Part shown: positions 7,355-32,907 of the stretch, piece by piece
Layout of the letters: each line of letters starts with the position of its first letter
Position numbering within the stretch: the stretch's first letter is position 1
Origin: Blastocatellia bacterium
GTDB taxonomy: Bacteria; Acidobacteriota; Blastocatellia; UBA7656
Direction: 5' to 3'
Length of the DNA: 64,000 nt
Assembly (NCBI GenBank): GCA_035455165.1
Contig: DATIFP010000196.1
Span: 24,237-88,236 of the forward strand
Notes under the pieces: generated by a model
The model's input: only the letters and a program-made list of their open reading frames with translations
What the model was told of the DNA's origin: nothing
Databases searched by the model: none
Position numbers and translations under genes: made by a program

Positions 7355-7370
7355 GCTCACGCTGAGCAGG
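7355..7370 (+). promoter_or_regulatory. Candidate sigma54 -24/-12 element (TGGCTC-N7-GAGCA) about 150 nt upstream of the giant oxidase gene
   Basis: GG at 7356-7357 and GC at 7368-7369 have the canonical 12-bp spacing; the -24 box matches TGGCAC 5/6, the -12 box is a weak match (GAGC vs TTGC). An NtrC-type activator is encoded immediately upstream. Confidence 0.25.
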
Positions 7371-7522
7371 CCAAATACATTCGAGTCCAATCATAGCCTG
7401 GAGGCTGGCGGGCTTCTGCTGGATGCGTCACCGCCGGCCTAGGGATCAGTCAACACAGCATTCGCTTCGGCGCTCATGGCCCTGGGTGCACAGGAGTAGT
7501 TTACCCATTCGAGGGGAGGGGA

Positions 7523-10500: not shown

Positions 10501-12724
10501 CAGTTGGCGAGTAGACGTTCTGACAGCGAACTCCGCGGACAGCTACCGCGAGTTCATGCTCGAGTTCGCCGACTTCCAGCACGCCTATCTGGCAGGCAGG
10601 GGCGGCGGCCGAGAGAACCCGCATCCCGATCCGCCCGGCGCAATAAATCCGCCGGCCAAGGAAGAAGCCCCTCTGCCTATCGTGATACAGAAAGCCGCCT
10701 TCTGCTTTGGCGGCGACCCGGCGCCATGCCCCGAAGCGATCTCGGCGGCTGACGTCGGCACGATGGTGGTCAACTATCGCAACGAGCCGGTCCCGCTGCG
10801 CATCCGCAATCCGATAACCGGCTTGCAGGTGGACGGAGAAGCGGGCGACCTGTCGCACGTATTCCGGTCGGATGTTCTTCGTAAGGATCCGGCGATGAAC
10901 GTGCAGCCCAACTTCTACTTCCCGTTGACGAAAGATGTACAACCGGGCGACCCGTATACGCCACTGCTGAGAGTCAATGAGAACGACCGGGTTCAGATCC
11001 GGATCCTCGTCGGCGCACACGAAGAAGGGCACAACTTCACGGTGCATGGAATCAAGTGGCTGTTTGAGCCTTCATTCGTGAATTCGGGTTATCGCAATTC
11101 ACAGATGATGGGGATAAGCGAACACTTCGAATTCATTGTCCCGACGATGCCCAAGAAGTTGACCGATAAGACGGCCGATTACCTCTACCGGCCGGGCGCG
11201 TCGACAGACGGTACGTGGAACGGTTTGTGGGGACTGGCCCGAGCCTACAAAGGCACAAGGGCTGACATGCTGGCCCTGCCATCCAATCCGAACGGCCGCG
11301 CTCCGGCGCTCTCGAATCAGGGTGACTTCTCGGGGGTCTGCTTGAAGACGCAGATACCCAAGACTTTTGGCGTCACCGCTGTTCTGGCGCGAGATGTCTT
11401 GCCCGCCGGCACACTTGTCTACAACAGGCGCGCGACGACGGTGAAGAATCCGAACACAGGCGAGACGCACAAGGGCCCGCTACACGACCCGACTGCGATT
11501 CTGTACGTGAGATCGACGGACATCGATGCGACGACCGGCAAGCTGAGGGCGGGCGTTCCAATCGAGCCGTTGATCCTCCGCGCCAATGCCGGCGATTGCA
11601 TCAACCTCACGTTGACCAACAAGCTGCCTTCGGTGTTGCCGGATCTTGCCGGCTGGAACTTCGTGCCAATGATTGTCGAGAAGTTCAATACCAATCAGGT
11701 CAGGCCTTCGAACAACGTGGGACTGCATCCGCAATTGGTGTTCTACGATGTGCTCGACAGCGACGGCTTTAATGTCGGCTTCAACGGCGTTCAAACGGTC
11801 GCTCCCGGATTCAGCCGCACGTATCAGTGGTACGCGGGTGACCTGGTGATCGCATCGGGGATAGGCAGTCTGAAACCGTTCGAGTTTGGCGGGACCAACT
11901 TGATGTCGTCAGACACCATCAAGCACAGCAACAAGGGTGCCTTCGGTGCTCTGATAATCGAGCCGCTAAACACGAAGTGGACTGAGGACAAGGGCTCGCG
12001 AGCCAGAGCGACCGTGACTGACTCGCTTGGCACGGTTCTCTTCCGCGACTTCGTGCTTATGCACCAGACCGACCTCAACCTGAGGTTCGGTGAAGGCTCG
12101 ACGATCGGCAACGGGTCGCCGGTGCCGAACCTGAGAGGAGGCGACGATGCCGAAGACTCGGCGCAGAAAGGGTTCAACTATCGAACCGAACCGCTCTGGT
12201 TCCGAATGGGCATTGCCCCTGACACTCCTTTGAGCAAGGGAGAAGCAATAGCCGAGTTTGGGCCGGGCGGAGTCTCCACTCGCGACATCGACTTCAGCAA
12301 CGTGTTGTCGAATTCGCAGGTGGGTCCCTGCATTGGCATCGACTGCAGTGAACCGGTAACGCCGATATTCACCGCAACGGCGGGAACACCCGTTCGTTTC
12401 CACCTGCTGAACGCCGGCGGCCACGGTCGCAACAACGTCTTCGCGCTGCACGGTCACGTTTGGCCGCAAGAGCCGTTCACTGCGAGCTCGACGGTCATCG
12501 GCCAAAACGTGCAGTCGGAGTGGTCAGGTGCTCAGATGGGAGTCGGAGCAGGCTTCCACTTCGTGGCGATCCCGAGGAATGGCGCAGGAGGAAAGTTCAG
12601 GATCACAGGCGACTACCTGTACCGGACCTTCCAATCGTTGCAGTTCGACGGCGGACTCTGGGGAATCTTCAGAGTCGCTTCGTCTGCCACCACTGATCCG
12701 GCCCTCCTGGATCCTCAACAATAA
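7523..12724 (+). CDS. Giant secreted multicopper-oxidase-like protein (1733 aa) with multiple cupredoxin-like domains
   Basis: Signal peptide (MIMSRKNRLLRFVMGGLVALAFLAIPDPANA). Cupredoxin strand signatures (LRMNVGDCLRINFKNLL; LRANAGDCINLTLTNKL). MCO copper-ligand motifs HHIHHLHAHQW (HxHLHxH type) and HCHFYPHFAMGMWELW (HCHxxxHxxxGM type). A second His-rich set: HIHLVKFDV, FTHDHFGPSTHQQVGLYAG, HGHVWPQ. Size class matches MofA/MnxG-type Mn-oxidising MCOs; that comparison is inference. Confidence 0.75.
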   Translation: MIMSRKNRLLRFVMGGLVALAFLAIPDPANAQFQIPADGAGGGGTAPGCNRTVNANVVALDQVFFWNRLGAVQPQGMIFALERDVVASDPAKPIGAGNVKLREDKRPRPIVLRMNVGDCLRINFKNLLNPVPVDQEQTVTRVASIRANGLQLVTSIADDGSNVGRNASSLVPPGGGAVYTFYAEREGGYMLYSMGSTTGGEGDGGQLNAGLFGAVTVQPTGAEWYRSQVTQNDLELATKTKTPDGHPVVDYNAVYPKDHPRAGLPILKMTREGFAGPEIVHTDLNAIITGPGADGFNGWYKDTPVNPNRNRPYREFTIIYHDEIGAVQAFPQFESQPPPNENPLKFTLHSVRDAFAINYGTGGIGAEILANRLGVGPMANCVECKYEEFFLTSWAVGDPAMVVDKPANAPCTIEDIRKANMGCGPAPGFKATKAFYPDDPSNVHHSYINDHVKMRILHGGSKEHHIHHLHAHQWVHTPDNDDSAYLDSQAIGPGAAFTLEITYNGTGNRNKVVGDSIFHCHFYPHFAMGMWELWRAHDVFESGTVLDEKGRPAPGSRALPDAEILAGTPIPALVPVPTMPMAPLPEVKVSIVNGQVQIEQGKFGPLPGNPGYPFFIPAVAGHRPPTAPLDVVDDGGLPRHVILDGKFTEVHTRLDFSKVLDLAIAEARPEAGTPVEKEAMRFHGIRFHPTCLPNGICDQAIDPTQIGANIKFVTNGLPRKTDANPLGAQPGAPYADPCVDDNGKAVGVARMYKAAGIQIDAKLNKAGWHFPQQRILALWGDVKALGGLPGQPQPTSPSKPPEPFFFRANTNDCITFYHTNLMPSVYALDDYQVRTPTDIIGQHIHLVKFDVTSSDGSGNGWNYEDGTFSPDEVIERIDAINLGGGLIVPPVVGDGPTLLVKLEPKPHPFFGTLGARTTTQRWYADDTLNNAGVDRTLRTVFTHDHFGPSTHQQVGLYAGLVIEPTGSKWRDPETGQILGGQGVPPPRFDGGPTSWRVDVLTANSADSYREFMLEFADFQHAYLAGRGGGRENPHPDPPGAINPPAKEEAPLPIVIQKAAFCFGGDPAPCPEAISAADVGTMVVNYRNEPVPLRIRNPITGLQVDGEAGDLSHVFRSDVLRKDPAMNVQPNFYFPLTKDVQPGDPYTPLLRVNENDRVQIRILVGAHEEGHNFTVHGIKWLFEPSFVNSGYRNSQMMGISEHFEFIVPTMPKKLTDKTADYLYRPGASTDGTWNGLWGLARAYKGTRADMLALPSNPNGRAPALSNQGDFSGVCLKTQIPKTFGVTAVLARDVLPAGTLVYNRRATTVKNPNTGETHKGPLHDPTAILYVRSTDIDATTGKLRAGVPIEPLILRANAGDCINLTLTNKLPSVLPDLAGWNFVPMIVEKFNTNQVRPSNNVGLHPQLVFYDVLDSDGFNVGFNGVQTVAPGFSRTYQWYAGDLVIASGIGSLKPFEFGGTNLMSSDTIKHSNKGAFGALIIEPLNTKWTEDKGSRARATVTDSLGTVLFRDFVLMHQTDLNLRFGEGSTIGNGSPVPNLRGGDDAEDSAQKGFNYRTEPLWFRMGIAPDTPLSKGEAIAEFGPGGVSTRDIDFSNVLSNSQVGPCIGIDCSEPVTPIFTATAGTPVRFHLLNAGGHGRNNVFALHGHVWPQEPFTASSTVIGQNVQSEWSGAQMGVGAGFHFVAIPRNGAGGKFRITGDYLYRTFQSLQFDGGLWGIFRVASSATTDPALLDPQQ

Positions 12725-12735
12725 CTGTTCGCTTC

Positions 12736-12772
12736 CTGGAGCGCGGCCTGGCTTGATCAGGCCGCGCTCCAG
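12736..12772 (+). terminator. Strong GC-rich hairpin (15-bp perfect stem CTGGAGCGCGGCCTG/CAGGCCGCGCTCCAG, 7-nt loop) 12 nt after the oxidase stop
   Basis: Perfect inverted repeat read from the sequence; no U-tract, as is common in high-GC genomes. Confidence 0.5.
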
Positions 12773-12839: not shown

Positions 12840-13079
12840 ATGAACAGCTCTGACAATCCTCGCCCGGCCTTCGAGACGACCGACCTCAATCTGGCAAGCT
12901 TCCTGCGATCGCGCAGCTTCGAGATTGCAGACATCAAACGCCAGAACTCCAAAACGATTTTTGCCTTCGATGATTCGCCGGCTCTACGCCAGGCGATCCT
13001 CGATTTTGCGAACGACGGAACGGTCGCAGTCCGGTCGTTTTGCAACACGGTCAGGGATTTGAAGGCCATCACGCGGTAG
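12840..13079 (+). CDS. Small hypothetical protein (79 aa), no recognised function
   Basis: Intact ORF between the oxidase terminator hairpin and the beta-propeller gene; no signal peptide; weak RBS. Confidence 0.4.
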   Translation: MNSSDNPRPAFETTDLNLASFLRSRSFEIADIKRQNSKTIFAFDDSPALRQAILDFANDGTVAVRSFCNTVRDLKAITR

Positions 13080-13109: not shown

Positions 13110-15170
13110 ATGAAGACAGCCACCAGCAAAACGAAAAGACCCAGGGGTCCAAAGACGAGTGTCTTGTCAAATAGCGGCCGGCTCGGACTTGCTACGGCCT
13201 TGTTGCTGACCGTCGCCATTATCGCTGCGGCGGGAGTCCCCCAGTCGAAGTCGATCGCGACCGACCAGACGAAACCCGGCTCGGATGAAAAACCGGCATC
13301 TGCGTCTTCTTCCAGTCGCGAGCCGCAACGGATAGTGCACGAAGGCCTCGTCATTGATTTCAGCGTCGAACCTGTTTCCGCGCGAGGCGGAAAAGCGACT
13401 GCTCTGATCGAAGGCGATGATGCAACGGTTCGGTTCAAGATGACCGATTCCCGGACTGGAACGCCGTTGACCAATCTGCACCCCTCCGCCTGGATGGATC
13501 GCCGGGCGGCGGGAAAGACAACCGAAGGGAAAGATTGCCGTCAGAAGATACAGTCGTTCCTGCAATCGAGCCTCAGCTCCCGCCCCGATATGGACTTGAA
13601 CATCTACTACATCCTTACACTCAATCAGGAGGCCAACATATCGGTCATCGACCCATTGCTGGGCTACGGCAGCAGCAAGCTGCTCACGCTTGTGTTCCTG
13701 AAGAGCCCCGGCGAGGACTGGGTCATGAGCCGCGACAAGAAGTGGCTGTTCGTCACTATGCCGTTGGTGAACCAGCTTGCCGTTGTCGATACCTCAAACT
13801 GGAAAGTGCTTACCAACATAGATGCCGGCCCGAAGCCCTCGAAGATCGCGTTGCAGCCTGACGACAAGTATTTGTGGGTTGGAAACGACGCGGCCGATGG
13901 GGAGAGCGGCGTCACGGCGATTGATTCCAGCCAGTTGAAGGTCGCGGCGCATATAAAGACTGGAGCGGGTCATCACGAAATTGCATTTGCAGGCGATAGC
14001 CGCTACGCCTACGTGACCAACAAGCTGGACGGCACGCTTTCGGTGATCGATGTACAAAAGCTCTCGAGGGCCAAAGACATAAAGACCGGCCCGCTTCCGG
14101 TGTCCCTGGCGTTCTCAGCTCTCAGCAATGCGATTTACGTTGCCGGCGAAGAAGACGGCACGATCGCGGTGATCGGCGGTGAGATCCCCGACATCCTGGC
14201 TCGAATCAAAACCAAACCGGGCGTGAGGTCGATTCGCTTTGCTCCGGATGGACGCTATGGGTTCGTTGTGAACGGCAAAGACAGCAACGTTCACGTGTTC
14301 GACGCGTCCAGTAATCGGCTTCTGCACGCGATCGACGTCGGCAAGAATCCGGACAAGATAAGCTTCACGCGCGGCTACGCCTACGTTAGAGCGCTGGGCA
14401 GCGATCAGGTCAACATGATCCGGCTTGAAGCAATTGGCAAACCGGGCGAAGTCCCGGTGATAGAGTTCCCCGCCGGTCAGTTGGCTCCCGAGAAATCGTC
14501 GAGCAGATCGCTGGCCGATCCCATCGTCGCAACCCCGGAAGGAGAATCAGTTCTTGTCGCGAATCCCGCGGACAAGATGATCTATTACTACGCCGAGGGG
14601 ATGGCCGCGCCGATGGGCAGCTTCCAGAATTATCGCCGGGAGCCGCGCGCGGTGATGGTCTGGGACCAGAGCCTTCGCGAGACTTCGCCAGGCGTCTACT
14701 CGACTAACGTCAAGCTTGTCGGCTCCGGGGACTACGATGTTGCCTTTCTCCTGGATACTCCGCGTGTGTCCCATTGCTTTGACCTGAGCGTGGCGCCAAA
14801 TCTCGCGTTGAAAAAAGAACCGGAGGTCCCGATTTACGTTGAGCCGCTGATCACCGATTCGAAGATCAAAGTCGGTGAAACCATCAAGCTGCAGTTCCTG
14901 GTTGTGGATTCGAAAAGCAGGCTTCCCAAAGATGGCCTGAAGGACTTAGGCGTGCTTGTGTTTCTGGCTCCTGGCCAGTCGCAAAACCGCCTGTGGGCGC
15001 AATCGATCGGGGACGGCAAATACGAGGTTTCTTTTAAGCCAGCGCAAGCCGGACCGTATTACGTGTTTGTCCATTGTCCCTCGTTGAGAGTCGGCTACAA
15101 TCAGACCATTCACTTCATCCTGCAGGCCGTCGAAGCAAAACCCGCGACTCCTGCAACCCCTTCAAAATAG
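13110..15170 (+). CDS. YVTN-family beta-propeller repeat protein with N-terminal signal/anchor and a C-terminal Ig-like beta-sandwich region
   Basis: Repeated propeller blade motifs (YAYVTNKLDGTLSVIDV, IYVAGEEDGTIAVIGG, YGFVVNGKDSNVHVFD, YAYVRALGSDQVNMI). N-terminal hydrophobic segment LGLATALLLTVAIIAAAG. Confidence 0.7.
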   Translation: MKTATSKTKRPRGPKTSVLSNSGRLGLATALLLTVAIIAAAGVPQSKSIATDQTKPGSDEKPASASSSSREPQRIVHEGLVIDFSVEPVSARGGKATALIEGDDATVRFKMTDSRTGTPLTNLHPSAWMDRRAAGKTTEGKDCRQKIQSFLQSSLSSRPDMDLNIYYILTLNQEANISVIDPLLGYGSSKLLTLVFLKSPGEDWVMSRDKKWLFVTMPLVNQLAVVDTSNWKVLTNIDAGPKPSKIALQPDDKYLWVGNDAADGESGVTAIDSSQLKVAAHIKTGAGHHEIAFAGDSRYAYVTNKLDGTLSVIDVQKLSRAKDIKTGPLPVSLAFSALSNAIYVAGEEDGTIAVIGGEIPDILARIKTKPGVRSIRFAPDGRYGFVVNGKDSNVHVFDASSNRLLHAIDVGKNPDKISFTRGYAYVRALGSDQVNMIRLEAIGKPGEVPVIEFPAGQLAPEKSSSRSLADPIVATPEGESVLVANPADKMIYYYAEGMAAPMGSFQNYRREPRAVMVWDQSLRETSPGVYSTNVKLVGSGDYDVAFLLDTPRVSHCFDLSVAPNLALKKEPEVPIYVEPLITDSKIKVGETIKLQFLVVDSKSRLPKDGLKDLGVLVFLAPGQSQNRLWAQSIGDGKYEVSFKPAQAGPYYVFVHCPSLRVGYNQTIHFILQAVEAKPATPATPSK

Positions 15171-15207: not shown

Positions 15208-15858
15208 ATGAATATGACAGATGAAACAAAACGTCGATTAGCGGGGCCCGCGTGGACCCGCACTGTGTGGACTGCGCTTGTGGTTGCGGCGAGCGTCGGG
15301 TTCTTGACATGGCCCATAGCGGCGCAATCAAAGAGCCCGGCTCCGGACGACAAGGATTCTCCGGCGCGAAACTATTTCACAGACGTTCAGTTGATCAATC
15401 AGGACGGCAAGCCTATGCGGTTCTACAGCGACTTGCTCAAGGACAAAGTGGTCATCATCAATACGTTCTTCACCACCTGCACAAGCGTCTGTCCTCCGAT
15501 GAGCAGGAACCTGGAACGAGTTCAAAGCTGGCTGGGAGACCGGCTCGGCAAGGACGTTCACATAATCTCGATCAGCGTTGACCCCGCAGTCGACACTCCG
15601 CCGCGGCTCAAAGACTACGCCCAAAAATACAAAGCGCGGCCGGGCTGGTTCTTTGTCGCCGGCAAGAAAGAGAATGCCGAATTCGCATTGCGAAAGATCG
15701 GACAATTTGTCGAATCGAAAGACGACCACTCGACGGTGATCATCATCGGGAATCTGCATACCGGGCTCTGGAAGAAAGCAATGGGTATGGCGAAGGCCGA
15801 AGACCTGATCAAGGTCGTGGAGAGCGTGGTCGATGATAAGCCGGGAGAGGTGAAATGA
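15208..15858 (+). CDS. Sco1/SenC-family copper chaperone (thioredoxin fold, CxxxCP)
   Basis: Signal/anchor, FFTTCTSVCPPM (CxxxCP copper site), conserved His in DHSTVIIIG, ISISVDPAVDTP. Confidence 0.85.
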   Translation: MNMTDETKRRLAGPAWTRTVWTALVVAASVGFLTWPIAAQSKSPAPDDKDSPARNYFTDVQLINQDGKPMRFYSDLLKDKVVIINTFFTTCTSVCPPMSRNLERVQSWLGDRLGKDVHIISISVDPAVDTPPRLKDYAQKYKARPGWFFVAGKKENAEFALRKIGQFVESKDDHSTVIIIGNLHTGLWKKAMGMAKAEDLIKVVESVVDDKPGEVK

Positions 15859-17474
15859 AAGCGAACCCAGCCGCGGTGATGAATATCAAACGCATTGCAT
15901 TCGTGGTTGCCTTGATGCTGATGCTCTTGTTTATCGGCAGCGCCGCCGCCAGCGGACCCGGACCGGGTCAACTGACTGAGCAGGAGAAACGGGGGAAGTT
16001 CATTTACCTGCGCGGCGCCAGCCCTTCGGGTAGGGAGATAACCTGCTATCTGGGAGACGGGACGATGGAGGTGCCGGCAGCGGCGATGCTGTGCGCAAAC
16101 TGTCACGGGTTTGACGGCCGGGGAAATCCGGAAGGCGGGGTGGTGCCCTCGGACATAACCTGGGAGGCGCTCTCCAAGTCTTATGGAGTCACTCACGCGA
16201 GCGGACGAAAGCATCCTCCCTACACGGACCGCGCGCTTGGGATCGCGGTGGCCAAAGGCATAGACCCGGCGGGGAACAAGCTGCCCAACACGATGCCGAG
16301 ATACTGGATGTCGCCGGAAGATCTCGCCGATCTGGTCGCTTATGTGAAACGTCTCGGACAGGATCGCGACCCGGGGTTGACGGAGACGAGCATCCGAGTC
16401 GGGACGATCGTGGCCGGACCGGGCCCGATGTCGGAAATGGGCCACGCGGTGGAAGCGGCCCTGGGAGCTTATTTCGAGGAGGTCAACGCCCAGGGTGGAA
16501 TCTACAATCGCATGATCGAGCTGCGCGTCGCCAAGTCACCGGCTGACCCGCGAGCAGCCAAATCAAATGCCGAGCGGTTCATCGACACCGAGCAGGTGTT
16601 CGCAATGGCGGGCGCGTTCATCGCGGGAGCGGACAAGGAAATAGCTTCGCTTGTCGAAGAAAAAGAAGTAGTGCTGGTAGGGCCGTCGACTCTCTATCCG
16701 GAGATTGGCTTTCCCCTGAACCGACACACTTTCTATCTGTTCTCGGGCTTGAAAGATCAAGCCGGTGCGCTGGTCAACTTCATCGGAGACAAACTTCAAA
16801 AGCAGACCCCGCGGCTCGCGATTGTCGCTCTCGATAGCGCCGACGCCGCGGGCCTCACGGAAGCGATTGAGAAACACGCCAAAAGACGCGGCTACAACGC
16901 AATCACCAGGCTCAGCTATTCGCGCAAGCAGTTTGATCCGGGCCAACTCGTCAAGAAGCTGAGCGACGCGGGCGCGGATGCGGTTTTCCTCTCAGGTTGG
17001 GGCGGAGAAGAGCTGGCGCTTATGAAAGAGGCGGCGAGGATGAACTTTACACCGTACTTTTTGATTCCCGGGTCGCTTGCCAGTAAGGAACTCCTGGATG
17101 CCCCGCCGATCCTCAAAGAAAGGATCTTTTTGGCTTTTCCGACTCTGCCAACAGACCAGACGCCGGAGGGCGTGCGCGAGTTTCTCACGATGGCAGAAAA
17201 GCACAACCTTCCGCAAAAGCAGCTTGCCGCTCAGCTCTCGGCATACTGCGCGGCGAAGATTCTCGTTGAGGCCTTGAAGCTGACGGGCAGGGAGCTGAGC
17301 CGCGAGAAGCTCATCAGGACGCTGGAGGGTCTTTACAACTTCGATACCGGATTGAGCCCCCGAATCTCTTACGGCCCGAATCGCCGAATCGGCGCGTTCG
17401 GAGCCTACATTGTAATGATCGATCCGGAGAAAAAGCAGTTCATTCCTGCGGGCGGCTGGATTACGCCCGAGTAG
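15855..17474 (+). CDS. Fusion protein: N-terminal mono-haem cytochrome c domain plus type-I periplasmic substrate-binding (LivK/PBP1-like) domain
   Basis: Signal peptide; CANCHG haem-binding CxxCH in the first ~150 aa; the remainder resembles branched-chain-amino-acid-type periplasmic binding proteins (VGTIVAGPGPMSEMGHAVEAALGAYFEEVNAQGGIYNRMIEL...). Start overlaps the Sco stop (ATGA). Confidence 0.7.
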   Translation: MKANPAAVMNIKRIAFVVALMLMLLFIGSAAASGPGPGQLTEQEKRGKFIYLRGASPSGREITCYLGDGTMEVPAAAMLCANCHGFDGRGNPEGGVVPSDITWEALSKSYGVTHASGRKHPPYTDRALGIAVAKGIDPAGNKLPNTMPRYWMSPEDLADLVAYVKRLGQDRDPGLTETSIRVGTIVAGPGPMSEMGHAVEAALGAYFEEVNAQGGIYNRMIELRVAKSPADPRAAKSNAERFIDTEQVFAMAGAFIAGADKEIASLVEEKEVVLVGPSTLYPEIGFPLNRHTFYLFSGLKDQAGALVNFIGDKLQKQTPRLAIVALDSADAAGLTEAIEKHAKRRGYNAITRLSYSRKQFDPGQLVKKLSDAGADAVFLSGWGGEELALMKEAARMNFTPYFLIPGSLASKELLDAPPILKERIFLAFPTLPTDQTPEGVREFLTMAEKHNLPQKQLAAQLSAYCAAKILVEALKLTGRELSREKLIRTLEGLYNFDTGLSPRISYGPNRRIGAFGAYIVMIDPEKKQFIPAGGWITPE

Positions 17475-17515: not shown

Positions 17516-19108
17516 ATGAAACCCAGATTCTTTGTCCTTATCATAGCGATGATGATCGGCGCGTCTGTGACGACGGCCCAGTCCAGCTCGCCCGCAAGCC
17601 CCAGCCAACAGGCGCAAACCGGGCCCACGAAACAGGCTGCGTCGGAGCAGGTTCCGAAGCCGGCCGAAAAGAAAGTCGAAGACTGCGGCTGCGAGGCGGC
17701 CAACACCCCGATCGATGTCGCGGCGATCGTCAACGGCGTGAAGATCACCACGAAGGAAATCGATGACCAGGTGAACGATGAGAAGTCCGGTTTGCAAAAG
17801 CAGGTCGTGGACGCTCGCCGCCGAGAGCTTAACCTGCAGATCAACTCACGGCTCCTCGAGGCTGAAGCCACGAGAAGAGGCACGACAGCCGCAAACGTGC
17901 TCGAGCAGGAGATCATTGCCGCGGTCAAAGATCCGACCGACGCGGAAACCCAGGCCTTCTATGACGAGAACAAGAGCCGCATACCCGGGCCGTTCAGGGA
18001 CTTCAAGCAGCAGATAGTTGAATACATCAAAGCCCAGCGCCAGGAAGGTGCCGCGAAGAAGTTCGCCGATAAGCTCAGGTCAGCGGCCGACGTAAAGATC
18101 CTCGTACAGACCGTCACCGCTCCGCAGAGCGAGTCCGATCGCGCGAAGGTGCTGGCTACCGTTAACGGCGCAGCGATCACCTCCGGAGACGTGGAAAATG
18201 CGTTGAAGCCATTGATCTACGACGTGCAGCTCCGGGTATATGGATTGAGAAAGGCTGAGCTGGCTCTCAGGATCAACGATCTCTTGCTGGAGCAGGAAGC
18301 CCAGAAGAGGAAGATTACGCCGAAGGCGCTCGTTGACGCAGAGTTGACGCCAAATGTGAAGAAAGTCAGCGAAGCGGAGGCAAAGAAGTTCTTCGAGGAC
18401 AACAAGGATCAGATAGAGGGTGAATATGAGCAGTTGAAGGACCAGATCGTCGATCACCTTCAGAAGAAGGAACAACGCAGGGCGGAGGTCGTATTCGCCG
18501 ACCGGCTCAGGCAAGGCGCAAAGATCGAGATGAACCTGAAGGAACCTGAATCTCCGGTTTTTCAGATCGCGACCGACGATCAGCCCTCGAGAGGAAAAGC
18601 CGACGCGCCGGTCACAATTGTCGAGTTCACTGATTTCGAATGCTCGACGTGCCAACAGTCTCAACCGGTCCTGGAAAAGCTCGCTCAGGATTTTCCCGCC
18701 AAGGTGAGACTGGTGGTCAGGGACTACCCGCTCGAGAAACACAAGAACGCATTCAAGGCAGCGGAAGCCGCAGAAGCGGCGCGAGAGCAGGGGAAGTACT
18801 GGGACTATTCGGCGGTCTTGTTTGAGAATCAAAAGGAGTTGGGAGTCGAGAAGCTGAAGGAATATGCGAGCAAAGTGGGACTTGATCGCAAAAAGTTCGA
18901 CGCCGAGTTGGATGCCGGCAAGTATGCCGCGAAAGTGCAGCGCGATATGCAGGATGGAATGCGAGCAGGCGTGAGCGGAACGCCCACAATCTTCATCAAT
19001 GGACGCCGTGTCTCGGACAGGACTTATGAAGCATTGAGGGCAGCCGTCGAAGAGGCCTTGAAAACGCCTGGAAGCCAATCAGAGCGACGCGACGCCGATC
19101 GGCGCTGA
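17516..19108 (+). CDS. Secreted SurA-N-like chaperone repeats fused to a DsbA-family thiol:disulfide oxidoreductase domain (CSTC)
   Basis: GGAGGAG Shine-Dalgarno before ATG 17516. Signal peptide. CGCE motif (AEKKVEDCGCEAANTP). Two repeats of A-VNG--IT--D-type chaperone segments. Thioredoxin CxxC (VTIVEFTDFECSTCQQSQPVLEKL). Confidence 0.75.
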   Translation: MKPRFFVLIIAMMIGASVTTAQSSSPASPSQQAQTGPTKQAASEQVPKPAEKKVEDCGCEAANTPIDVAAIVNGVKITTKEIDDQVNDEKSGLQKQVVDARRRELNLQINSRLLEAEATRRGTTAANVLEQEIIAAVKDPTDAETQAFYDENKSRIPGPFRDFKQQIVEYIKAQRQEGAAKKFADKLRSAADVKILVQTVTAPQSESDRAKVLATVNGAAITSGDVENALKPLIYDVQLRVYGLRKAELALRINDLLLEQEAQKRKITPKALVDAELTPNVKKVSEAEAKKFFEDNKDQIEGEYEQLKDQIVDHLQKKEQRRAEVVFADRLRQGAKIEMNLKEPESPVFQIATDDQPSRGKADAPVTIVEFTDFECSTCQQSQPVLEKLAQDFPAKVRLVVRDYPLEKHKNAFKAAEAAEAAREQGKYWDYSAVLFENQKELGVEKLKEYASKVGLDRKKFDAELDAGKYAAKVQRDMQDGMRAGVSGTPTIFINGRRVSDRTYEALRAAVEEALKTPGSQSERRDADRR

Positions 19109-19142
19109 CCTGAGATGCCTGCGGGGATACCTGCAAGCAGAT

Positions 19143-19180
19143 GCGAGGGGCCCAACCGGGGCCACGGGTAAGCCCCTCGC
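19143..19180 (+). terminator. Hairpin (9-bp stem GCGAGGGGC/GCCCCTCGC, 20-nt loop) between the first DsbA-like gene and the HMBD-Sco gene
   Basis: Inverted repeat read from the sequence; possible partial terminator/attenuator inside the module. Confidence 0.3.
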
Positions 19181-19252
19181 GACTTAAAGCGCGTTCTCGT
19201 GCATCAACGAACCAGCCGAACTGACGAGCGGCAGAGAGAGGCGGTGCAAAGT

Positions 19253-20005
19253 ATGAAACACATAATCGCAATTACACTGATCGTTTGCGGAATCCTGGCG
19301 GCCGGCGCTGGGCCGGGTTCCGTGAATGTCGCGTTGGCCCGGCAATCCAAGAAAAAGCAGAAAGCCGCCGGCTACTACTGTGTGATGGATCCCGAGGTCA
19401 AAGCCTCGAAGCCCGGCACCTGTCCCAAGTGCGGAATGGATCTGAGGGCGATTGAGAAAGACGGCGACGCAGCCTCACCGGATACCGAGTTGTCGAAACC
19501 TAATGAAGCCGATTCTGGTTCGCCCGTGAAGCTGCAAATCCCGGACGTGAGCGTGTACGATCAGGACGGCCAGAAGTTGAAGTTTGTCACCGATCTGGTA
19601 AGAGGCAAAACGGTAGCGATAAATTTCATCTTTACAACCTGTACGACGATCTGTCCCCCGTTGGCGGCAACGTTTCGCAGAGTCCAGCAGGAGATGGGAG
19701 ATCGTGTTGGCCACGACGTGAGACTGATCTCGATAAGCGTTGATCCTGTCGTCGACACACCCGAGAGATTGAAGCAGTTTGGCGCCAAGTTCAAAGCAGC
19801 TCCCGGATGGACCTTCGTCACCGGGAGCAAGTTTGAGATCAACTCTCTATTGAAAGCGCTCGGCGCGGCGGTGGTGGACAAGAACGATCACACGCCGATG
19901 GTACTTGTGGGCAATGACGCGGCGGGCTACTGGACCCGCACCTATGGGCTCGCCCCGGCCTCGGTTCTCGTAAGAGTCATAACCGATGCGGCGAGTAAGA
20001 ACTGA
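19253..20005 (+). CDS. Sco1/SenC-family copper chaperone with N-terminal heavy-metal-binding (YHS/HMBD-type) domain
   Basis: YYCVMDPEVKASKPGTCPKCGMDL matches the YxCPMHPE...PGxCPxCGMxL metal-binding domain of CusB/CopA N-termini. Sco domain IFTTCTTICPPL, ISISVDPVVDTP, DHTPMVLVG. Start chosen at MKHIIA (signal peptide). Confidence 0.8.
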   Translation: MKHIIAITLIVCGILAAGAGPGSVNVALARQSKKKQKAAGYYCVMDPEVKASKPGTCPKCGMDLRAIEKDGDAASPDTELSKPNEADSGSPVKLQIPDVSVYDQDGQKLKFVTDLVRGKTVAINFIFTTCTTICPPLAATFRRVQQEMGDRVGHDVRLISISVDPVVDTPERLKQFGAKFKAAPGWTFVTGSKFEINSLLKALGAAVVDKNDHTPMVLVGNDAAGYWTRTYGLAPASVLVRVITDAASKN

Positions 20006-20204
20006 GCATGCGACGATAGATCTCCGCCATACTGGGACGACTCGGGGAACAAGCCGGCAACCCTCATAATTCGCGAACACCAGGGCCGATTTGACGGTCG
20101 AATCACGATCATGAGTCAATGTTCGGGTAGCCAGGGTCGAACTATGACGATGCTTCGACCTGCCGGCGTCGTTCAACACATGTTGATTCATGATTGGAGG
20201 TCCG

Positions 20205-21764
20205 ATGAAAAGGGTTTCACTGTTGATGGCGGTTGGAGCGATGATCGCTTCTCTTGCGCAACCAGGCAAGGCGTTTTTGAATGTCTCGCAGGATCGGTCC
20301 GCCGCGCCCGTCGCGAAGCAGTCCGCGGCGGCAACGCCCTCAAAATCCGCCGAGAAAAAAGCCGAAGACTGCGGTTGTGAAGTCAAGCCTCCGCCCGACG
20401 TGCTTGCGATTGTCAACGGGGTCAAGATCGCGATCAAGGACGTCGAGGAACCTCTGCAAGAGCGCATCAGGGCGCTTCAGGATCAAGTGATTGAAGCGCG
20501 AAAGCGCCAGCTTGAACTCGAGATCAATTCCAGCCTCCTTGACGCGGAAGCCCGTCGTCTTGGCATCACTACGGAAAAGCTTCTGGATCGTGAAGTAACG
20601 CAAAAGTCCAAAGAGCCGACCGAAGCAGAAGCGCGATCCTTCTACGATTTGAACAAGAGTCAGATTCAAGGCGAGTTCAAGGACGTAAAGGACCAGGTTA
20701 TCGGTTACCTGCGAGGGCTGCGTCAGCGGGAGATTGCGAAGCGGTATGCCGACCGACTTCGGACCGGCGCGCGCGTCAAAGTGCTTGTGCCGTCGGCCAC
20801 TCCTCCGGAAACTGATGCCGACCGTGCGCGTGTATTCGCGATCGTAAACGCCAAGCGCATAACGTCCGGGGATGTCGAGGATTCGCTCAAAGCGATAGTT
20901 GCCAGCGTGCAGGAACAGATCTACAGCCTCCGCAAAGACGAGTTGGACGCGAAAATCAATAACACGTTGCTCGACCAGGAGGCGCAGAAGAAGGGGGTCA
21001 CTGCGCCGGCCCTGTACCAGACCGAGATAGCACCTCGAATGAAGCCCGTGACCGATGAAGAGGCGCGCAAGTTTTACGATGAGAACAAGAGCCGTATGAC
21101 CGGGACCTTCGAGCAGCGGCAGGCGCAGATCATCGAGTACTTGCAGAACTCCAGGAGAACCGCTGCTGAGAAAGCCTTCGCGGAAGACCTGCGAAAAGGA
21201 GCGACTCTTCAAGTGTTCCTCAAGCCGCCCGATCCGCCTGTGTTCAACATACCAATCGACGATCGTCCGTGGCGAGGCGGAGCCTCCGCCCCGGTCACGA
21301 TTGTAGAATTCACCGACTACGAGTGTCCGAGCTGTGGCGCGACACAACCGGTGCTGGAGGAAATCGTCAAGGAATTCGGCGACAAAGTAAAACTGGTCGC
21401 GCGGAATTACCCCCTCGACCAGCATAAGCATGCCTTCAAAGCCGCGGAGGCTGCGGAGTCAGCGCGAGAGCAAGGCAAGTACTGGGAGTATGTCGCGATA
21501 CTGTTCAAGAATCAGAACGCTCTCGAGGTTGAGAAGCTCAAGGAATATGCCGATCAATTGGGACTCGACCGCGGAAGGTTCGATGCCGCGCTCGACTCAG
21601 GGAAGTTCGCCGACAAGGTAAGACGAGACCTCAGCGAAGGCGACAAAGTGGGAGTTGACTCGACCCCGACGGTGTTCATCAACGGGAGGAGGGCGCGTGA
21701 CAGGAGCCGCGAAGCCTTGAAAGCGGCCATAGAAGCCGCTCTTAAGGAGGGCGTCAAGAAATAG
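20205..21764 (+). CDS. Paralog of 17516..19108: SurA-N-like repeats fused to DsbA-family domain (CPSC)
   Basis: GGAGG before ATG 20205; CGCE motif (AEKKAEDCGCEVKPPP); VTIVEFTDYECPSCGATQPVLEEI; same architecture and ~50% identity to the first copy. Confidence 0.75.
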   Translation: MKRVSLLMAVGAMIASLAQPGKAFLNVSQDRSAAPVAKQSAAATPSKSAEKKAEDCGCEVKPPPDVLAIVNGVKIAIKDVEEPLQERIRALQDQVIEARKRQLELEINSSLLDAEARRLGITTEKLLDREVTQKSKEPTEAEARSFYDLNKSQIQGEFKDVKDQVIGYLRGLRQREIAKRYADRLRTGARVKVLVPSATPPETDADRARVFAIVNAKRITSGDVEDSLKAIVASVQEQIYSLRKDELDAKINNTLLDQEAQKKGVTAPALYQTEIAPRMKPVTDEEARKFYDENKSRMTGTFEQRQAQIIEYLQNSRRTAAEKAFAEDLRKGATLQVFLKPPDPPVFNIPIDDRPWRGGASAPVTIVEFTDYECPSCGATQPVLEEIVKEFGDKVKLVARNYPLDQHKHAFKAAEAAESAREQGKYWEYVAILFKNQNALEVEKLKEYADQLGLDRGRFDAALDSGKFADKVRRDLSEGDKVGVDSTPTVFINGRRARDRSREALKAAIEAALKEGVKK

Positions 21765-21786: not shown

Positions 21787-23775
21787 TTAGCTTTGAGGCG
21801 ACGGCATCTGGAGCCGCGCGCGGAGGTCCTGAACGTCCTTGCTTACTTTGGACGCGTCGGGCGCGTCAGGCTGAAGCTGCAGGTATATAGATAGCTGGTC
21901 AATCGCTTCCTTGAGCTGTCCCTTCGCTTTGTAGGCATACGCGAGAAACTTGTGCGCGTCAACGATCACCGAACTCTCGGCGAGCGCCGCATTCAAGAAA
22001 CTAATCCCCTCGTCGTACTTTCCCTTCTTCACCAAAACTCCCCCCATGTGAAACTTCAGCATGGGGTTCTGCGGACTGAGACGCATCGCACGATCATAGC
22101 AGGCGATCGCGCGGTCATAGTTCTTGAGACCGGTGTCGAATGTGTGGATAGTGCCGAGTGCGTCCCACAACACCGGCGATGAGTCCTGGAGCTTCAGCCC
22201 TGTATCGCAAACTTCGAGGGCGCGATCCAGAATGTCGCGGTCGGGGACGGACCCGGTTGCGAGCTGTTGAGAGTATATCAGCACATAACACGAAGCGAGG
22301 TTCGCCAGGACGAGGGGGTTGTCCGGGTTTATTTTCAGGTACAGCTCCAGTTGTTCAGCCGCCTTGGGGTAGTCGGTCAAATCGATAAGCTTGTGGCCGA
22401 GCACGAAGTGTGACATTGGCTGCTCAGGTGCTGTTTTCACCCCGTGATACCACACGCTCATATCATCCTTCCACGTCGCGTTCTGTGCGAGGGCTTTCCC
22501 CGCAAACAACAACACGAGCACGGTTGTCACCGCTGCTTGCGCCCGGACCCGGCTTGCGAACGGGAGCCACTGCTCAAACGGCACTTTTGCAATGGCCATG
22601 GCGACAAGCAGTGAGAACCCTATCGATGGAATGTAAAGGTAGCGCTCCTGAACCAGGAAGTTCTCGTCGAACGCCCCCAGATTCAGAACGGGAAGCAGGT
22701 TGATCGCGAACCAGAGAATGCCGAACCGAGCAACCGTGGATTTCCAGAGCGGCCGGAGCGCAACCGCCAAACCGATAAGACCGACAAGCGGTACGATGAA
22801 ACGCACGTTCAGCGCGGTCCTCACCATCGGCGTCAGATGAAAGAGCGAAAGCTCGACGGGCCAGACCAGCAGCCCGATGTATTTCCAGATGACGAGCGGA
22901 ATGGTCTGCACTATCCACCGAGTCGGATATGTCCTGAATTCGGCGTTGTTGAGCGCAAAGCCAAGCGAATAATATCGTGCGGCGAAATAAAGTATTGCCA
23001 CTGCGAGAAAACAAGACCCAAAGACGATACCGCTCTTGAGCCGGTCACCCAGGCGCTTTTCCTGATTAACTACGAATAGCTCGTATGAGCCGATGAATAA
23101 TGAAAGAGCGACCGCGGGTTCCTTGACGAGCGTTGCAAGCAGAAACAGCAATAGCGAGAAGACAAGAAGCTTTGTCTTTTTTTCCTCTCGATAGCGCATG
23201 TACAGGAAAAGCGAGGGCAGCAGGAACACGGCGAGGAGGGGATCTGTGACGCCGCTTATCCACGCTACCGATTCGCTTCGGAGAGGATGGGCGGCGAAGA
23301 CGAACGCACCAATCGCGGACACACGAGCGTCCGCGGTGAATCGCCGCAGAACTTTGTAGACGAAGTAAGCCGCAAGAACGTGCAGCGCTACGTTGGCGAG
23401 GTGCCAGCCCGGGGCCCAGTTCCCAAACAACGCCCACATCGTCATCAGGTAGATCACAAACGCCGGCCGATAATACGGAGTGGACGGCTTGTCTTGCGTA
23501 TTCGGGTCCTGGTCCTGCTGAACTCGCCAATACCACGTTTCGGTGACGAGCGCTTTCGGTAGGTTGCCGAGATCACGAATAAACTTGTTGTCCAGTATTT
23601 GGGTAGTGTCGTCGTATGCAAATCCATTCCACAGCGTATTCGAGAACGCGAGAAACGTAACGCCCAGCACCAGCCACAGAATCCAATCCCTGGGCGTCCT
23701 GGCTTGATCGGCGTTGACTGAAGGGGTTGTGCGCGGCCTGTTCCGAAGGCTGCGTGATCGGCTTTTTTTGGCCAC
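21787..23775 (-). CDS. Multi-pass membrane protein with C-terminal TPR repeats (PMT/TMTC-like putative glycosyltransferase)
   Basis: About 400 aa hydrophobic N-terminal region followed by TPR-like repeats (AYAYKAKGQLKEAIDQL, AIACYDRAMRLSPQNP). Confidence 0.6.
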   Translation of the reverse strand: MAKKSRSRSLRNRPRTTPSVNADQARTPRDWILWLVLGVTFLAFSNTLWNGFAYDDTTQILDNKFIRDLGNLPKALVTETWYWRVQQDQDPNTQDKPSTPYYRPAFVIYLMTMWALFGNWAPGWHLANVALHVLAAYFVYKVLRRFTADARVSAIGAFVFAAHPLRSESVAWISGVTDPLLAVFLLPSLFLYMRYREEKKTKLLVFSLLLFLLATLVKEPAVALSLFIGSYELFVVNQEKRLGDRLKSGIVFGSCFLAVAILYFAARYYSLGFALNNAEFRTYPTRWIVQTIPLVIWKYIGLLVWPVELSLFHLTPMVRTALNVRFIVPLVGLIGLAVALRPLWKSTVARFGILWFAINLLPVLNLGAFDENFLVQERYLYIPSIGFSLLVAMAIAKVPFEQWLPFASRVRAQAAVTTVLVLLFAGKALAQNATWKDDMSVWYHGVKTAPEQPMSHFVLGHKLIDLTDYPKAAEQLELYLKINPDNPLVLANLASCYVLIYSQQLATGSVPDRDILDRALEVCDTGLKLQDSSPVLWDALGTIHTFDTGLKNYDRAIACYDRAMRLSPQNPMLKFHMGGVLVKKGKYDEGISFLNAALAESSVIVDAHKFLAYAYKAKGQLKEAIDQLSIYLQLQPDAPDASKVSKDVQDLRARLQMPSPQS

Positions 23776-28014: not shown

Positions 28015-28767
28015 TTGAAATACGGTGGGCAAACAAGTTGCCTGGTCGCGGTTACGCTGGCCCTCGCGGTGAGTTCGTCGTGTTTCTCCGTTTGTCGCGC
28101 GCAGGACCCCGGGAAACTATCGCCCCCCGAAATACTCGCGGCGGCCGCGGAGCGAGGCAAGCAGTTGCAGTTGGCGCTGCGCCAATACTCCTACTATGCT
28201 GAGCTGACCATCCAAACGATCAGTCAATCGGATACGATCACCGGCAAGTTCTATCGCTTCGCGTTGATCTCTTTTGACCGCGACGGCAATCGCAATGAGA
28301 AGGTGCTCGAGAACACGTCGACTCTTCCGAGAGACGTGTACATCGGTACGAATGCCGCCAACAATATGACTCGCGTATACCAGTTTATTGTCACGCCGGA
28401 AACGCTCACTCAGTATGAGCTGACATATGTCGGTCGCGAGCGCATCGATGAGCTGAACACTTATGTATTCGACGTGAAACCCAAGGTAAAAATGCCGGAC
28501 CCGGACAAGAGCGATGAGCGCTATCTGAGAGGCCGCGTTTGGATTGACGATCAGGATCTGTGCGTGGTCAAGATCGCGGGAGAAGCACTGCCCGAACAAG
28601 CCGCCCATCACACTCCGAAATTCGAAACCTACTTCCAGAATTACGACAAATATTGGTTTCCCGCAGCCACGTCGGCGGACGACAGCATACGCGTGGGGCG
28701 GCGCTTTACTCGTGTGGTCGTCAATGTTCGCTTCACTGGATACAAGAAAGCGAGCCCGCCAGGATGA
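28015..28767 (+). CDS. Secreted LolA-like protein, paralog 3 (TTG start)
   Basis: Starts 3 nt after the paralog 2 stop; YELTYVGRERIDELNTYVFDV, GRVWIDDQDLCVVKIAG, TPKFETYFQN, VRFTGYKKA. Confidence 0.55.
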   Translation: MKYGGQTSCLVAVTLALAVSSSCFSVCRAQDPGKLSPPEILAAAAERGKQLQLALRQYSYYAELTIQTISQSDTITGKFYRFALISFDRDGNRNEKVLENTSTLPRDVYIGTNAANNMTRVYQFIVTPETLTQYELTYVGRERIDELNTYVFDVKPKVKMPDPDKSDERYLRGRVWIDDQDLCVVKIAGEALPEQAAHHTPKFETYFQNYDKYWFPAATSADDSIRVGRRFTRVVVNVRFTGYKKASPPG

Positions 28768-31472: not shown

Positions 31473-32873
31473 ATGCTAGACTCTTCTCGAATGTCCGATC
31501 AGCGCGTGTTAATTGTGGACGATGAGGAAGCCGCGCGGCAGGGCCTCAGCGAGGTTGTCGCGAGCTGGGGCTACGTGACCGAGACCGCTCCGGACGGGAG
31601 GGACGCAGTTGATCGGGTCGAGAGCTTCGCTCCCCTCGTTGTCATCACCGATGTAGTGATGCCCAATCTCGATGGTTTCAAGTTGCTTGCGCATCTCAGG
31701 GCTGAACACCCGGAGACCTCTGTGATCCTGCTGACCGGGCAAGGCTCGGTAGACGCCGCGATCCGTTCCGTCAAGGACGAAGGCGCTTTCTACTATTTCG
31801 AAAAGCCGATTGAGATGGGAAGGCTGCGTCTGGTCCTGCGAAAAGCCGCGGAATACAGCAGCGCGCGGCGCGAAAACGAGTTGCTTCGTCGCCAGCTTCG
31901 CCAGTACGGATGTTTCGGCGACATGGTGGGTGATTCGGAAGCGATGCGCGAGATTTATACGCTGGTCGAGCAGGTTGCGCCGAGCGCGGTGTCAGTGCTG
32001 GTCACCGGCGAGTCGGGCACAGGCAAGGAAATGGTCGCGCGGACGATCCATAAGCTCAGTCCGCGGGCGAGCCAGCCCTTCATTGCCATCAACTGTGCGG
32101 CGGTGCCTGAAACGCTCATGGAATCCGAGTTGTTTGGGCACGAGAAGGGAGCATTCACCGGCGCCGCCGACCGGCGCATTGGTTGCTTCGAGCTGGCCAA
32201 CAACGGAACGCTGCTGCTTGACGAGATTGCGGACATGCCATTCCTTCTTCAGGCGAAGCTCCTGCGAGTGCTCGAAGACAAAAAAGTACGCCGGCTCGGC
32301 TCAACCAAAGAGACGAACGTCGATGTCCGAGTCATCGCCGCTACGAACAGGGATCCGGTGAAGGCGGTGCAACAGGGTACACTGAGAGAAGACTTGCTGT
32401 ACCGTTTGAACGTAATTACAATCAAGCTTCCTCCGCTGCGCGATCACCGCGACGACATCCCGCTGCTGGTTCAGTACATGATCGACGAACTGAGCAAGCG
32501 GCACAACAAGTCGGCGCGGCTCATGTCGGCTGACGCAATCGAGGCTCTGCTTGGGTATCATTGGCCGGGCAACGTTCGCGAGCTGCGGAATGTAGTCGAA
32601 CGCGCGGTTGTGATTTGCGACGGGGAACAGATCGAAAAGCGCCATCTGCCTTTTCACATCACCGGCCAGGAACCCTCACCAACTGCCGACGCCGTGATGA
32701 TACCGATCGGCATGCCCCTCGAAGAAGTAGAACGGCGTGTGATACTCAGCACACTCGCTCGCACTGAATACAACAAGACGCGGACTGCTGAAACTTTGCA
32801 TATCAGCCTCAAGACGCTCCACAACAAGTTGAAGGCGTACAAAGAGGCGGGCCTGGAAAAAGACGAAGTATGA
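31473..32873 (+). CDS. Sigma54-dependent response regulator (NtrC family)
   Basis: Receiver (VLIVDDEE...DVVMPNLDG), [24 protein letters not shown]-terminal HTH ([19 protein letters not shown]). The true start may be the MSDQ codon at 31494. Confidence 0.9.
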
Positions 32874-32907
32874 GTGGAAACCTGCGTTTCAACTCGTTCT
32901 TATTGAC

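Follow-up and report, generated by a model that had tools for sequence, protein, structure and literature searches.

Tandem paralogs joining a CxC motif, SurA-N-like modules, and a DsbA-like domain in a multicopper oxidase operon of a Blastocatellia bacterium

We analyzed a 64,000-nucleotide stretch of a Blastocatellia bacterium genome assembly (contig DATIFP010000196.1, positions 24,237 to 88,236 of the forward strand; here, the window), focusing on two paralogous genes, fus1 and fus2, each of which encodes an exported fusion of a short cysteine motif (i.e., CxC), two SurA-N-like modules, and a DsbA-like oxidoreductase domain. On the plus strand, the genes occur in the order MnxG-like multicopper oxidase (MCO), DUF5659, propeller, Sco, cytochrome c fused to a periplasmic binding protein domain (cyt c/PBP), fus1, a heavy-metal-binding domain joined to a second Sco (HMBD-Sco), and fus2 (Table 1). 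The original prediction had placed Sco at 15208, fus1 at 17516, HMBD-Sco at 19253, and fus2 at 20205, and these placements were confirmed. For the two fusion genes, the ATG starts at 17516 and 20205 were favored over longer open reading frames (ORFs) on the basis of GGAGG-type ribosome-binding sites located 5 to 6 nt upstream. The two products are 51% identical over 518 aa (E = 4e-178), and the fus2 product is 100% identical to a protein (P0001) of a Blastocatellia bacterium metagenome-assembled genome (MAG).

Table 1. Genes, protein sites, and RNA elements of the locus (nucleotide positions in the window, unless residues are indicated)
Feature	Position	Strand	Description
fus1	17516-19108	+	Exported protein with CxC, two SurA-N-like modules, and DsbA-like oxidoreductase domain (CSTC); operon-bound paralog
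fus1, CGC	17684-17692	+
fus1, CSTC	18641-18652	+
fus1, Thr-Pro	Residues 490-491
fus2	20205-21764	+	CPSC paralog; ancestral position beside convergent TPR membrane protein
fus2, CGC	20370-20378	+
fus2, repeats	20385-20834 and 20835-21260	+
fus2, CPSC	21324-21335	+
HMBD-Sco	19253-20005	+	Heavy-metal-binding domain (YYCVMDPEV...CPKCGM) and Sco with CTTIC and conserved His
Sco	15208-15858	+	CTSVC motif
cyt c/PBP	15855-17474	+	Cytochrome c (CANCH) fused to Peripla_BP_6 domain
MnxG-like MCO	7523-12724	+	Giant multicopper oxidase, 1733 aa; presumed client
DUF5659	12840-13079	+	Small ORF, 79 aa; conserved operon member
Propeller	13110-15170	+	YVTN-type beta-propeller protein, 686 aa; operon member
Two-hairpin element	19116-19180	+	fus1/HMBD-Sco spacer; hairpin 1, ~19117-19139; hairpin 2, 19143-19180
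Membrane and TPR protein	21787-23775	-	Convergent; synteny marker of ancestral fus2 position; outside operon

Both fusion proteins exhibit the same layout, i.e., a signal peptide (identified by inspection), a disordered linker of ~35 residues, the sequence D-C-G-C-E, the two modules, and the DsbA domain. The predicted EDCGCE and CxxC motifs (CSTC in fus1 versus CPSC in fus2) were read in both sequences; the CGC motif had been described as lying immediately after the signal peptide, which the intervening linker contradicts. In an AlphaFold2 (AF2) model of the fusion built on 74 homologs (predicted local distance difference test [pLDDT], 84; predicted template modeling score [pTM], 0.72), residues 1 to 52 are disordered (pLDDT <50) and the CGC motif (residues 56 to 58) stands at the edge of the ordered part. 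A lipoprotein reading of the N-terminal cysteines was rejected, since no lipobox precedes the CGC motif, which is ~35 residues past an AxA-type cleavage site.

The two modules represent an internal tandem repeat (residues 61 to 210 versus 211 to 352 of fus2; 39% identity; E = 1e-31). Each repeat opens with a strand-hairpin, 'VAxVNG..I', and each module is modeled as a beta-hairpin, a 43-residue helix, three more helices, and a closing strand. The SurA_N_3 profile scored the window fusions at 27.0 and 22.1 bits, just under its cut-off of 27.2, and reached E <=0.01 in 18 of 20 members of the family (best, 8.9e-9). Rotamase_2, with only the start of its profile (positions 1 to 61 of 121), matched 14 of the 20. 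When a model of the N-terminal region (pLDDT 86) was compared with PDB folds, the top matches were SurA, LIC12922, and PEB4/Cj1289, all of them weak, and a profile of this region retrieved no significant match among PDB sequences. The SurA-like assignment of the repeats is thus borderline but consistent; of the SurA-N/DsbA fusion originally proposed, the DsbA domain and the repeat structure are well founded, while the SurA-N part is borderline in both sequence and fold. Peptidyl-prolyl isomerase (PPIase) function was rejected: profile searches found no parvulin domain, and the AF2 model leaves no room for one.

The window fusions exceeded the Pfam cut-offs for Thioredoxin_4 (PF13462; 109.5 and 108.7 bits versus 23.2) and DSBA (PF01323; 64.7 and 58.0 bits versus 25.6), and the catalytic domain was modeled, with pLDDT >90 throughout, as a thioredoxin fold carrying an inserted helical domain. 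Foldseek matched it to BdbD (3eu3; TM score, 0.83; E = 3e-10) and to 3gyk (TM score, 0.84). Besides BdbD, the best matches of the domain were a Silicibacter oxidoreductase and ScsC proteins from Caulobacter, Salmonella, and Proteus (CcScsC, 7rgv; StScsC, 4gxz; PmScsC, 4xvw). A profile search against PDB sequences ranked BdbD (2e-22) ahead of CcScsC (7rgv; 1.7e-13) and 4gxz (3e-11). The CxxC and Thr-Pro of the fusion align with the CPSC of BdbD and the TP of its ATPT, and we take the aligned Thr-Pro to be the cis-Pro loop. By all of the sequence and structure-model criteria applied, fus1 and fus2 are assigned to the DsbA-like family; they are not ScsC, SurA, or PPIases.

Alignment of the paralogs with their orthologs, which had been proposed as a check on the CGC and CxxC motifs, bore out their conservation, and the refuting outcome named in advance, a CGC motif not conserved among orthologs, was not observed. 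The cysteines of both motifs (C56 and C58 of CxC; C374 and C377 of CxxC) are invariant across 213 aligned close homologs, and in the 74-sequence alignment the same four cysteines and P488 are invariant, with T487 present in at least 90% of the sequences. The pattern D-C-G-C-[ED] was found in 118 of the 120 best fus2 matches (57 to 100% identity), the two exceptions being N-terminally truncated, and CxC (i.e., CGC or CAC) was found in all 92 new sequences retrieved with fus1. The fus1 orthologs (P0121-P0141; 64 to 90% identity) carry CSTC, CSSC, or CPTC at the active site.

The family extends much further. A library search with the N-terminal 300 residues recovered 375 representative clusters at E <=1e-10, including full-length proteins of ~500 aa down to 26% identity, a subset of which keeps CGC, CDC, or CEC while many lack the motif; a visual reading of the printed N termini places the CxC of some distant homologs 3 to 6 residues past the apparent signal peptide cleavage site. 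The members originate from Blastocatellia, Pyrinomonadaceae, and Chloracidobacterium and, more distantly, from Vicinamibacteria, Binataceae, 'Deltaproteobacteria', and Elusimicrobia MAGs. In databases (>2,300 matches), they are labeled 'thioredoxin domain-containing protein' or 'protein-disulfide isomerase', and literature searches on either a SurA-DsbA fusion or MnxG in Acidobacteria yielded no specific report. Judged by these searches, the architecture of CxC, two SurA-N-like modules, and a DsbA domain is widespread in Acidobacteriota, and the family would comprise thousands of uncharacterized members in soil Acidobacteriota. Three clades were distinguished among the locus-derived proteins: clade A, which bears CxC and shares >=48% identity with fus2; clade B, which has the same two-module architecture and occurs in the same taxa but contains only the two CxxC cysteines (L046-L073); and clade C, which consists of ~350-aa lipoproteins of other phyla that have a single module and CPF/YC at the active site (L071-L089). 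True lipobox relatives are confined to clade C.

The genomic surroundings tie fus1 to the oxidase genes. Its orthologs were found in the oxidase operon in all five independent loci for which upstream sequence was available (L004, L005, L006/7, L008, and L009), where the order is MnxG-like, (small ORF), DUF5659, propeller, Sco, cyt c/PBP, fus1, and HMBD-Sco. HMBD-Sco follows fus1 in all fus1 loci. The DUF5659 ORF, which matches that family at E = 3.8e-14 in the window and has no signal peptide, was also found in L004, L006, L008, and L009. Downstream of HMBD-Sco, fus2 and the gene for a membrane and tetratricopeptide repeat (TPR) protein follow in the window, L005, L006/7, and L008; in L004, multiheme cytochromes and a Rieske/cytochrome b complex take this place, and in L009, an unrelated gene does. 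An operon with a single fusion gene (i.e., MnxG-like, propeller, HMBD-Sco, Sco, cyt c/PBP, and fusion) was identified in at least 13 other Pyrinomonadaceae/Blastocatellia genomes, and cyt c/PBP is always immediately upstream of the fusion gene in intact operons.

Both Sco neighbors in the window match SCO1-SenC (PF02630; 62.2 and 65.6 bits versus a cut-off of 22.8) and have the CxxxC(P) motif and the conserved His (CTSVCPP and CTTICPP; DHS and DHT); they are 45% identical to each other. On a 5.7-Mb contig (L093, positions 7009 to 8313), HMBD-Sco and Sco are fused into one protein of 434 aa with the HMBD and two SCO1-SenC domains; the fus-type gene of this contig is followed by the convergent TPR gene. 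The fused Sco pair is Rosetta-stone evidence, at the sequence level, for joint action of the two Sco proteins. Sco genes located within 6 kb and in the same orientation accompany 19 of 36 clade A genes, 0 of 20 clade B genes, and 0 of 9 clade C genes (clade A versus clade B, Fisher's exact test, 2e-5), a comparison that ignores kinship and in which some of the clade A loci were fetched via fus1. The copper context that had been proposed for both fusion proteins is therefore upheld for the fus1 orthologs, which lie in the oxidase operon, and for the Sco-linked CxC clade, while fus2 orthologs also occur without copper genes.

These surroundings bear on one alternative, namely, that the proteins are the housekeeping DsbA of Blastocatellia, i.e., ordinary disulfide catalysts whose place in the operon is historical synteny and among which fus1 is a redundant duplicate. 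The size of the family, its generic database names, and the many genomes in which fus2 orthologs lie beside electron transfer flavoprotein (ETF) or ETF-quinone oxidoreductase (ETF-QO) genes or have other unrelated neighbors fit such a role. We nevertheless consider it highly unlikely. Even where fus2 is not adjacent, fus1 stays in the operon, as in L009 and in L004, which shares the whole-genome shotgun prefix JBASRM with L010 (apparently one MAG, in which fus1 belongs to the operon and a lone fus2 sits next to the TPR gene at another locus). Furthermore, fus1 has its own conserved active-site dipeptide (CSTC/CSSC/CPTC), and the CxC-less paralog family of the same taxa is never copper linked. 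In L001 (positions 3987 to 6685), a second, unrelated MCO (677 aa; three domains) with its own Sco fills the same slot, between ETF-QO and a fus2 ortholog.

How the two paralogs arose can be partly reconstructed. In a neighbor-joining tree (no bootstrap), fus1 forms one clade that is nested among the Blastocatellia members of clade A and adjoins the fus2 group. The HMBD-Sco/fus2 spacer of L006/L007 (12509 to 12892) preserves the remains (the last ~113 residues) of a second cyt c/PBP gene; this relic matches residues 402 to 513 of the L093 cyt c/PBP protein (52% identity; E = 1e-34) and is only 36% identical to the intact resident copy; no such relic was detectable in the window's own 200-bp spacer (20006 to 20204). 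Sequence comparison indicates that fus1 and fus2 arose in this lineage when the last gene, or the tail, of an operon conserved in Blastocatellia/Pyrinomonadaceae was duplicated; the order of that operon is MnxG-like, DUF5659, propeller, HMBD-Sco, Sco, cyt c/PBP, and fusion. The simplest history would be that the block comprising HMBD-Sco, Sco, cyt c/PBP, and fusion was duplicated in tandem, after which copy 1 would have lost HMBD-Sco and copy 2 would have lost Sco and cyt c/PBP; copy 1 would then have diverged faster. By the same comparison, fus1 (CSTC) is the fast-evolving, operon-bound copy, and fus2 (CPSC) has retained its ancestral sequence and place. Both Sco genes are older than this duplication, because they are adjacent or fused in the single-fusion operon of ancestral type. 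The duplicated Sco-plus-fusion cassette of the original prediction therefore has a historical basis in the tandem block duplication, but its two Sco genes did not arise from that event, and the cassettes are not symmetrical, with cyt c/PBP (15855 to 17474) sitting between Sco and fus1. The present functional unit is one operon rather than two cassettes.

The giant oxidase at the head of the operon scored 1433.7 bits on the NCBIfam MnxG model, well below the equivalog cut-off of 3100, and a Pfam search of the 1733-aa protein found nothing at E <=0.01. From these scores, it is classified as related to MnxG and not assigned as the MnxG manganese oxidase. It contains 17 Cys residues, with close pairs at 381/384, 411/423, 691/697, 1061/1069, and 1603/1608, and a single HCHxxxH motif. 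Most of the multicopper oxidases that have been studied are thought to exit the cytoplasm via the twin-arginine translocation (Tat) route. The signal peptide of this oxidase has no twin-arginine motif (no RR), which is unusual among multicopper oxidases, and was read as Sec type. On the basis of sequence, the oxidase is the likely client of the fusion proteins. In L004 (12820 to 20537; one MAG), the operon is directly followed by multiheme cytochromes, a Rieske/cytochrome b pair, and more c-type cytochromes; these neighbors hint that the MnxG-like oxidase may feed a respiratory chain, i.e., that it may take part in energy-conserving metal oxidation.

We propose, with moderate confidence and from sequence evidence, that the fusions are DsbC/ScsC-like disulfide foldases for Sec-exported, Cys-rich cuproproteins, in which the CxC motif would serve as a second redox site and possibly as a Cu(I) site. 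Probably, they help the giant copper oxidase to fold. In this scheme, the chaperone modules would hold unfolded Cys-rich cuproproteins, chiefly the 1733-aa oxidase, upon their entry into the periplasm; the CxxC motif would form or reshuffle client disulfides in a copper-rich setting prone to misoxidation; and the Sco pair would supply or handle copper. The CxC motif would act as a second redox-active pair, either in an internal or intersubunit relay or by stapling an oligomer through a disulfide bond, with Cu(I) ligation as a possible additional function. Precedents exist for both activities: ScsC trimers are copper-linked disulfide isomerases that bind Cu(I) (PMC5524982, PMC8900818), and CxC motifs are redox active at potentials like those of protein disulfide isomerase (-139 mV for CsgC and -167 mV for a CGC peptide; PMC3173608).

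Among known systems, ScsC resembles the fusions in its DsbA-like Thioredoxin_4 catalytic domain, in an N-terminal extension that provides a new quaternary or substrate-binding context, and in its genetic link to copper; the active-site cysteines of CcScsC bind Cu(I) (PMC8900818). However, the ScsC extension is a trimerization helix of 40 to 60 residues (PmScsC and CcScsC are trimeric; StScsC is monomeric), whereas the fusions carry two 145-residue modules. ScsC also lacks CxC and works with ScsB/ScsD in scsABCD, no such partner being present among the scanned window ORFs, and its context is a copper stress operon rather than an oxidase biogenesis operon. DsbC and DsbG, which combine a thioredoxin-fold CxxC domain with an N-terminal cleft domain for unfolded clients and act as isomerase and chaperone, are the proposed functional likeness, but their N-terminal domain is unrelated, the DsbA-type helical insertion sets the fusions apart, and no DsbD was found nearby. 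BdbD is membrane associated and partnered with BdbC. The Bacillus subtilis BdbD protein is the best match in both sequence and structure, with an identical CPSC (fus2) and the Thr-Pro loop, but it is a single-domain protein without chaperone modules or CxC. SurA, PrsA, PEB4, and PpiD share the 'VAxVNG..I' strand-hairpin, the long helices, and the closing strand of each repeat and include the top-ranked fold matches; unlike them, the fusions have no parvulin domain and carry two modules in tandem, and the similarity is borderline.

As in the fusions, the CxC motifs of domain III of the copper chaperone for superoxide dismutase (CCS), of CsgC, of the BslA tail, of the Erv2p CGC tail, and of Mia40 (CPC) are located on flexible or exposed segments, although a fusion to a DsbA domain or to a SurA-like module occurs in none of these proteins. 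The CxC-type motifs of Erv2p and Mia40 act in disulfide relays. That of the BslA tail is an interchain staple (10.1101/138099). CCS suggests a different emphasis, in which the fusion would be a metallo-foldase whose CxC is primarily a Cu(I) site that is fed by Sco/HMBD-Sco and passes copper to the oxidase, with CxxC closing the disulfides; copper insertion and disulfide formation would then be coupled in a single protein, as when CCS acts on SOD1. Linkage to Sco/MCO genes is confined to the CxC-bearing clade, and the motif has acidic flanks and lies on a flexible segment, as would suit a copper site; moreover, the C-terminal CXC tail of CCS serves both copper relay and disulfide transfer (PMC6383938), and the CxxC of ScsC binds Cu(I) with subpicomolar affinity (PMC8900818). 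This possibility is weakened because CxC is conserved where no copper genes are nearby: it is equally invariant in fus2 orthologs without a neighboring copper gene and is also present in 26 to 29% identical homologs in unrelated contexts. In addition, the operon already has three copper-binding modules (i.e., two Sco and one HMBD), and no His or Met ligands are conserved around CxC. We regard a primary role in copper relay, the main rival of the foldase reading, as unlikely, and the metal (copper) site originally proposed at CxC could not be demonstrated, given the distant CxC-bearing homologs outside copper contexts.

The proximity of the Sco genes also allows the opposite redox role, in which the fusion would act as a TlpA-like reductase that keeps the Sco CxxxC and/or the Cys ligands of the oxidase reduced for copper binding. 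BdbD is an oxidase. The catalytic domain of the fusions is closest to BdbD and shares its CPSC (fus2) in the alignment, neither the operon nor the scanned window ORFs include a DsbD/CcdA-type electron donor, and two 145-aa chaperone modules would be needless for reducing small folded Sco domains. On the other hand, the fusion gene is immediately beside Sco genes in both arrangements, TlpA of Bradyrhizobium reduces ScoI and CoxB before metallation (PMC6669012), and ScsC, with its DsbA fold, works on the reducing/isomerizing side (PMC5524982). On balance, a reductase role seems quite improbable to us.

Several observations weigh against the foldase proposal itself. The oxidase, isomerase, or reductase direction of the reaction is not readable from the sequence, and the scanned ORFs of the 64-kb window include no DsbB, VKOR, DsbD, CcdA, or ScsB. 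The match of the N-terminal fold to SurA falls short of significance (best E = 0.078; TM <=0.35). The contrast in Sco linkage (19/36 versus 0/29) is essentially one phylogenetic split. Furthermore, fus2 orthologs are also found without copper genes nearby (e.g., downstream of ETF/ETF-QO genes), and no copper context was found for two distant CxC-bearing homologs that were checked (P0306 and P0277; 26 to 29% identity). Part of the operon linkage could therefore be inherited synteny.

If the foldase proposal is correct, the locus would suggest how a copper enzyme of 1,700 residues that is rich in Cys and exported without a twin-arginine signal might be folded, disulfide bonded, and metallated in the periplasm. 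The locus represents a compact, conserved candidate assembly line in which a chaperone-fused DsbA is encoded together with two Sco proteins and a cytochrome c fusion. It would also extend the theme of DsbC, DsbG, and ScsC, in which an N-terminal add-on turns a DsbA fold into an isomerase, to tandem SurA-like modules and a CxC motif. The presence of a specialized CSTC paralog beside a generalist CPSC paralog offers a natural experiment.

The spacer between fus1 and HMBD-Sco contains the predicted hairpin at 19143 to 19180, which has a 9-bp stem and a 20-nt loop and is the second of a pair. The pair recurs in the same spacer of L004 (11600 to 11672), L005 (2885 to 2960), L008 (8585 to 8658), and L009 (7770 to 7843), as well as on the minus strand of a metagenome contig (L092, ~930 to 1000), and is absent from L006/7. 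Hairpin 2, including its loop, exhibits 97.8% mean identity between loci, compared with 73% and 67% for the flanking coding DNA; hairpin 1 has a conserved stem and a loop of variable length (4 to 13 nt). Among the six sequences, hairpin 1 showed one compensatory pair, which is not significant (172 of 500 shuffles reached the observed value). A canonical Rho-independent terminator was rejected, because the stem is followed by GACUUAAAGCG, with no U-tract, and the element was not reported by a terminator scan; a dispersed repeat resembling repetitive extragenic palindromic sequences was rejected as well, because the element is unique in the window and is found in 4 of 91 loci and the one metagenome contig, always in the same spacer. 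An Rfam search gave no match at E <=10, and a regular expression search for diverged copies found none. Because the element is unique, lacks a U-tract, and is conserved far beyond a simple terminator, it is more than a generic terminator, and we regard it as a candidate for a new cis-acting RNA or processing site; the attenuating role originally predicted for it is putative.

The closest parallel is the cutFOG operon of Rhodobacter capsulatus, in which a conserved cutF-cutO stem-loop controls the next gene of an MCO operon in response to copper (PMC9973294). Both are intraoperonic stem-loops just past the stop codon of a gene for a Sec-exported Cys-motif protein in an MCO operon. In contrast to cutF-cutO, the hairpin in the window is clear of the HMBD-Sco Shine-Dalgarno sequence, which is ~60 nt further on and is not sequestered, and fus1 lacks a proline-rich stalling tail. 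A more ambitious reading would make the fusion a bacterial three-module counterpart of CCS, in which CxC takes Cu(I) from Sco/HMBD-Sco, the arms hold the oxidase, CxxC closes the disulfides, and the spacer hairpin is a copper-responsive switch; we consider this combination a rather long shot. Elsewhere in the operon, a perfect 15-bp GC-rich hairpin (CTGGAGCGCGGCCTG / CAGGCCGCGCTCCAG; 7-nt loop) is located at 12736 to 12772, 12 nt past the oxidase stop codon and without a T-run. It possibly sets differential mRNA stability.

Two sets of sigma-54-dependent two-component regulators are encoded on either side of the region (2086 to 6452 and 31473 to 34872); a search for a sigma-54 (-24/-12) promoter upstream of the oxidase gene gave no good match. 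A second membrane and TPR-type protein in the window (28560 to 30878; plus strand) matches TMEM260-like O-mannosyltransferases, and, speculatively, the Ser/Thr/Pro-rich linker of the fusions may be a target of glycosylation.

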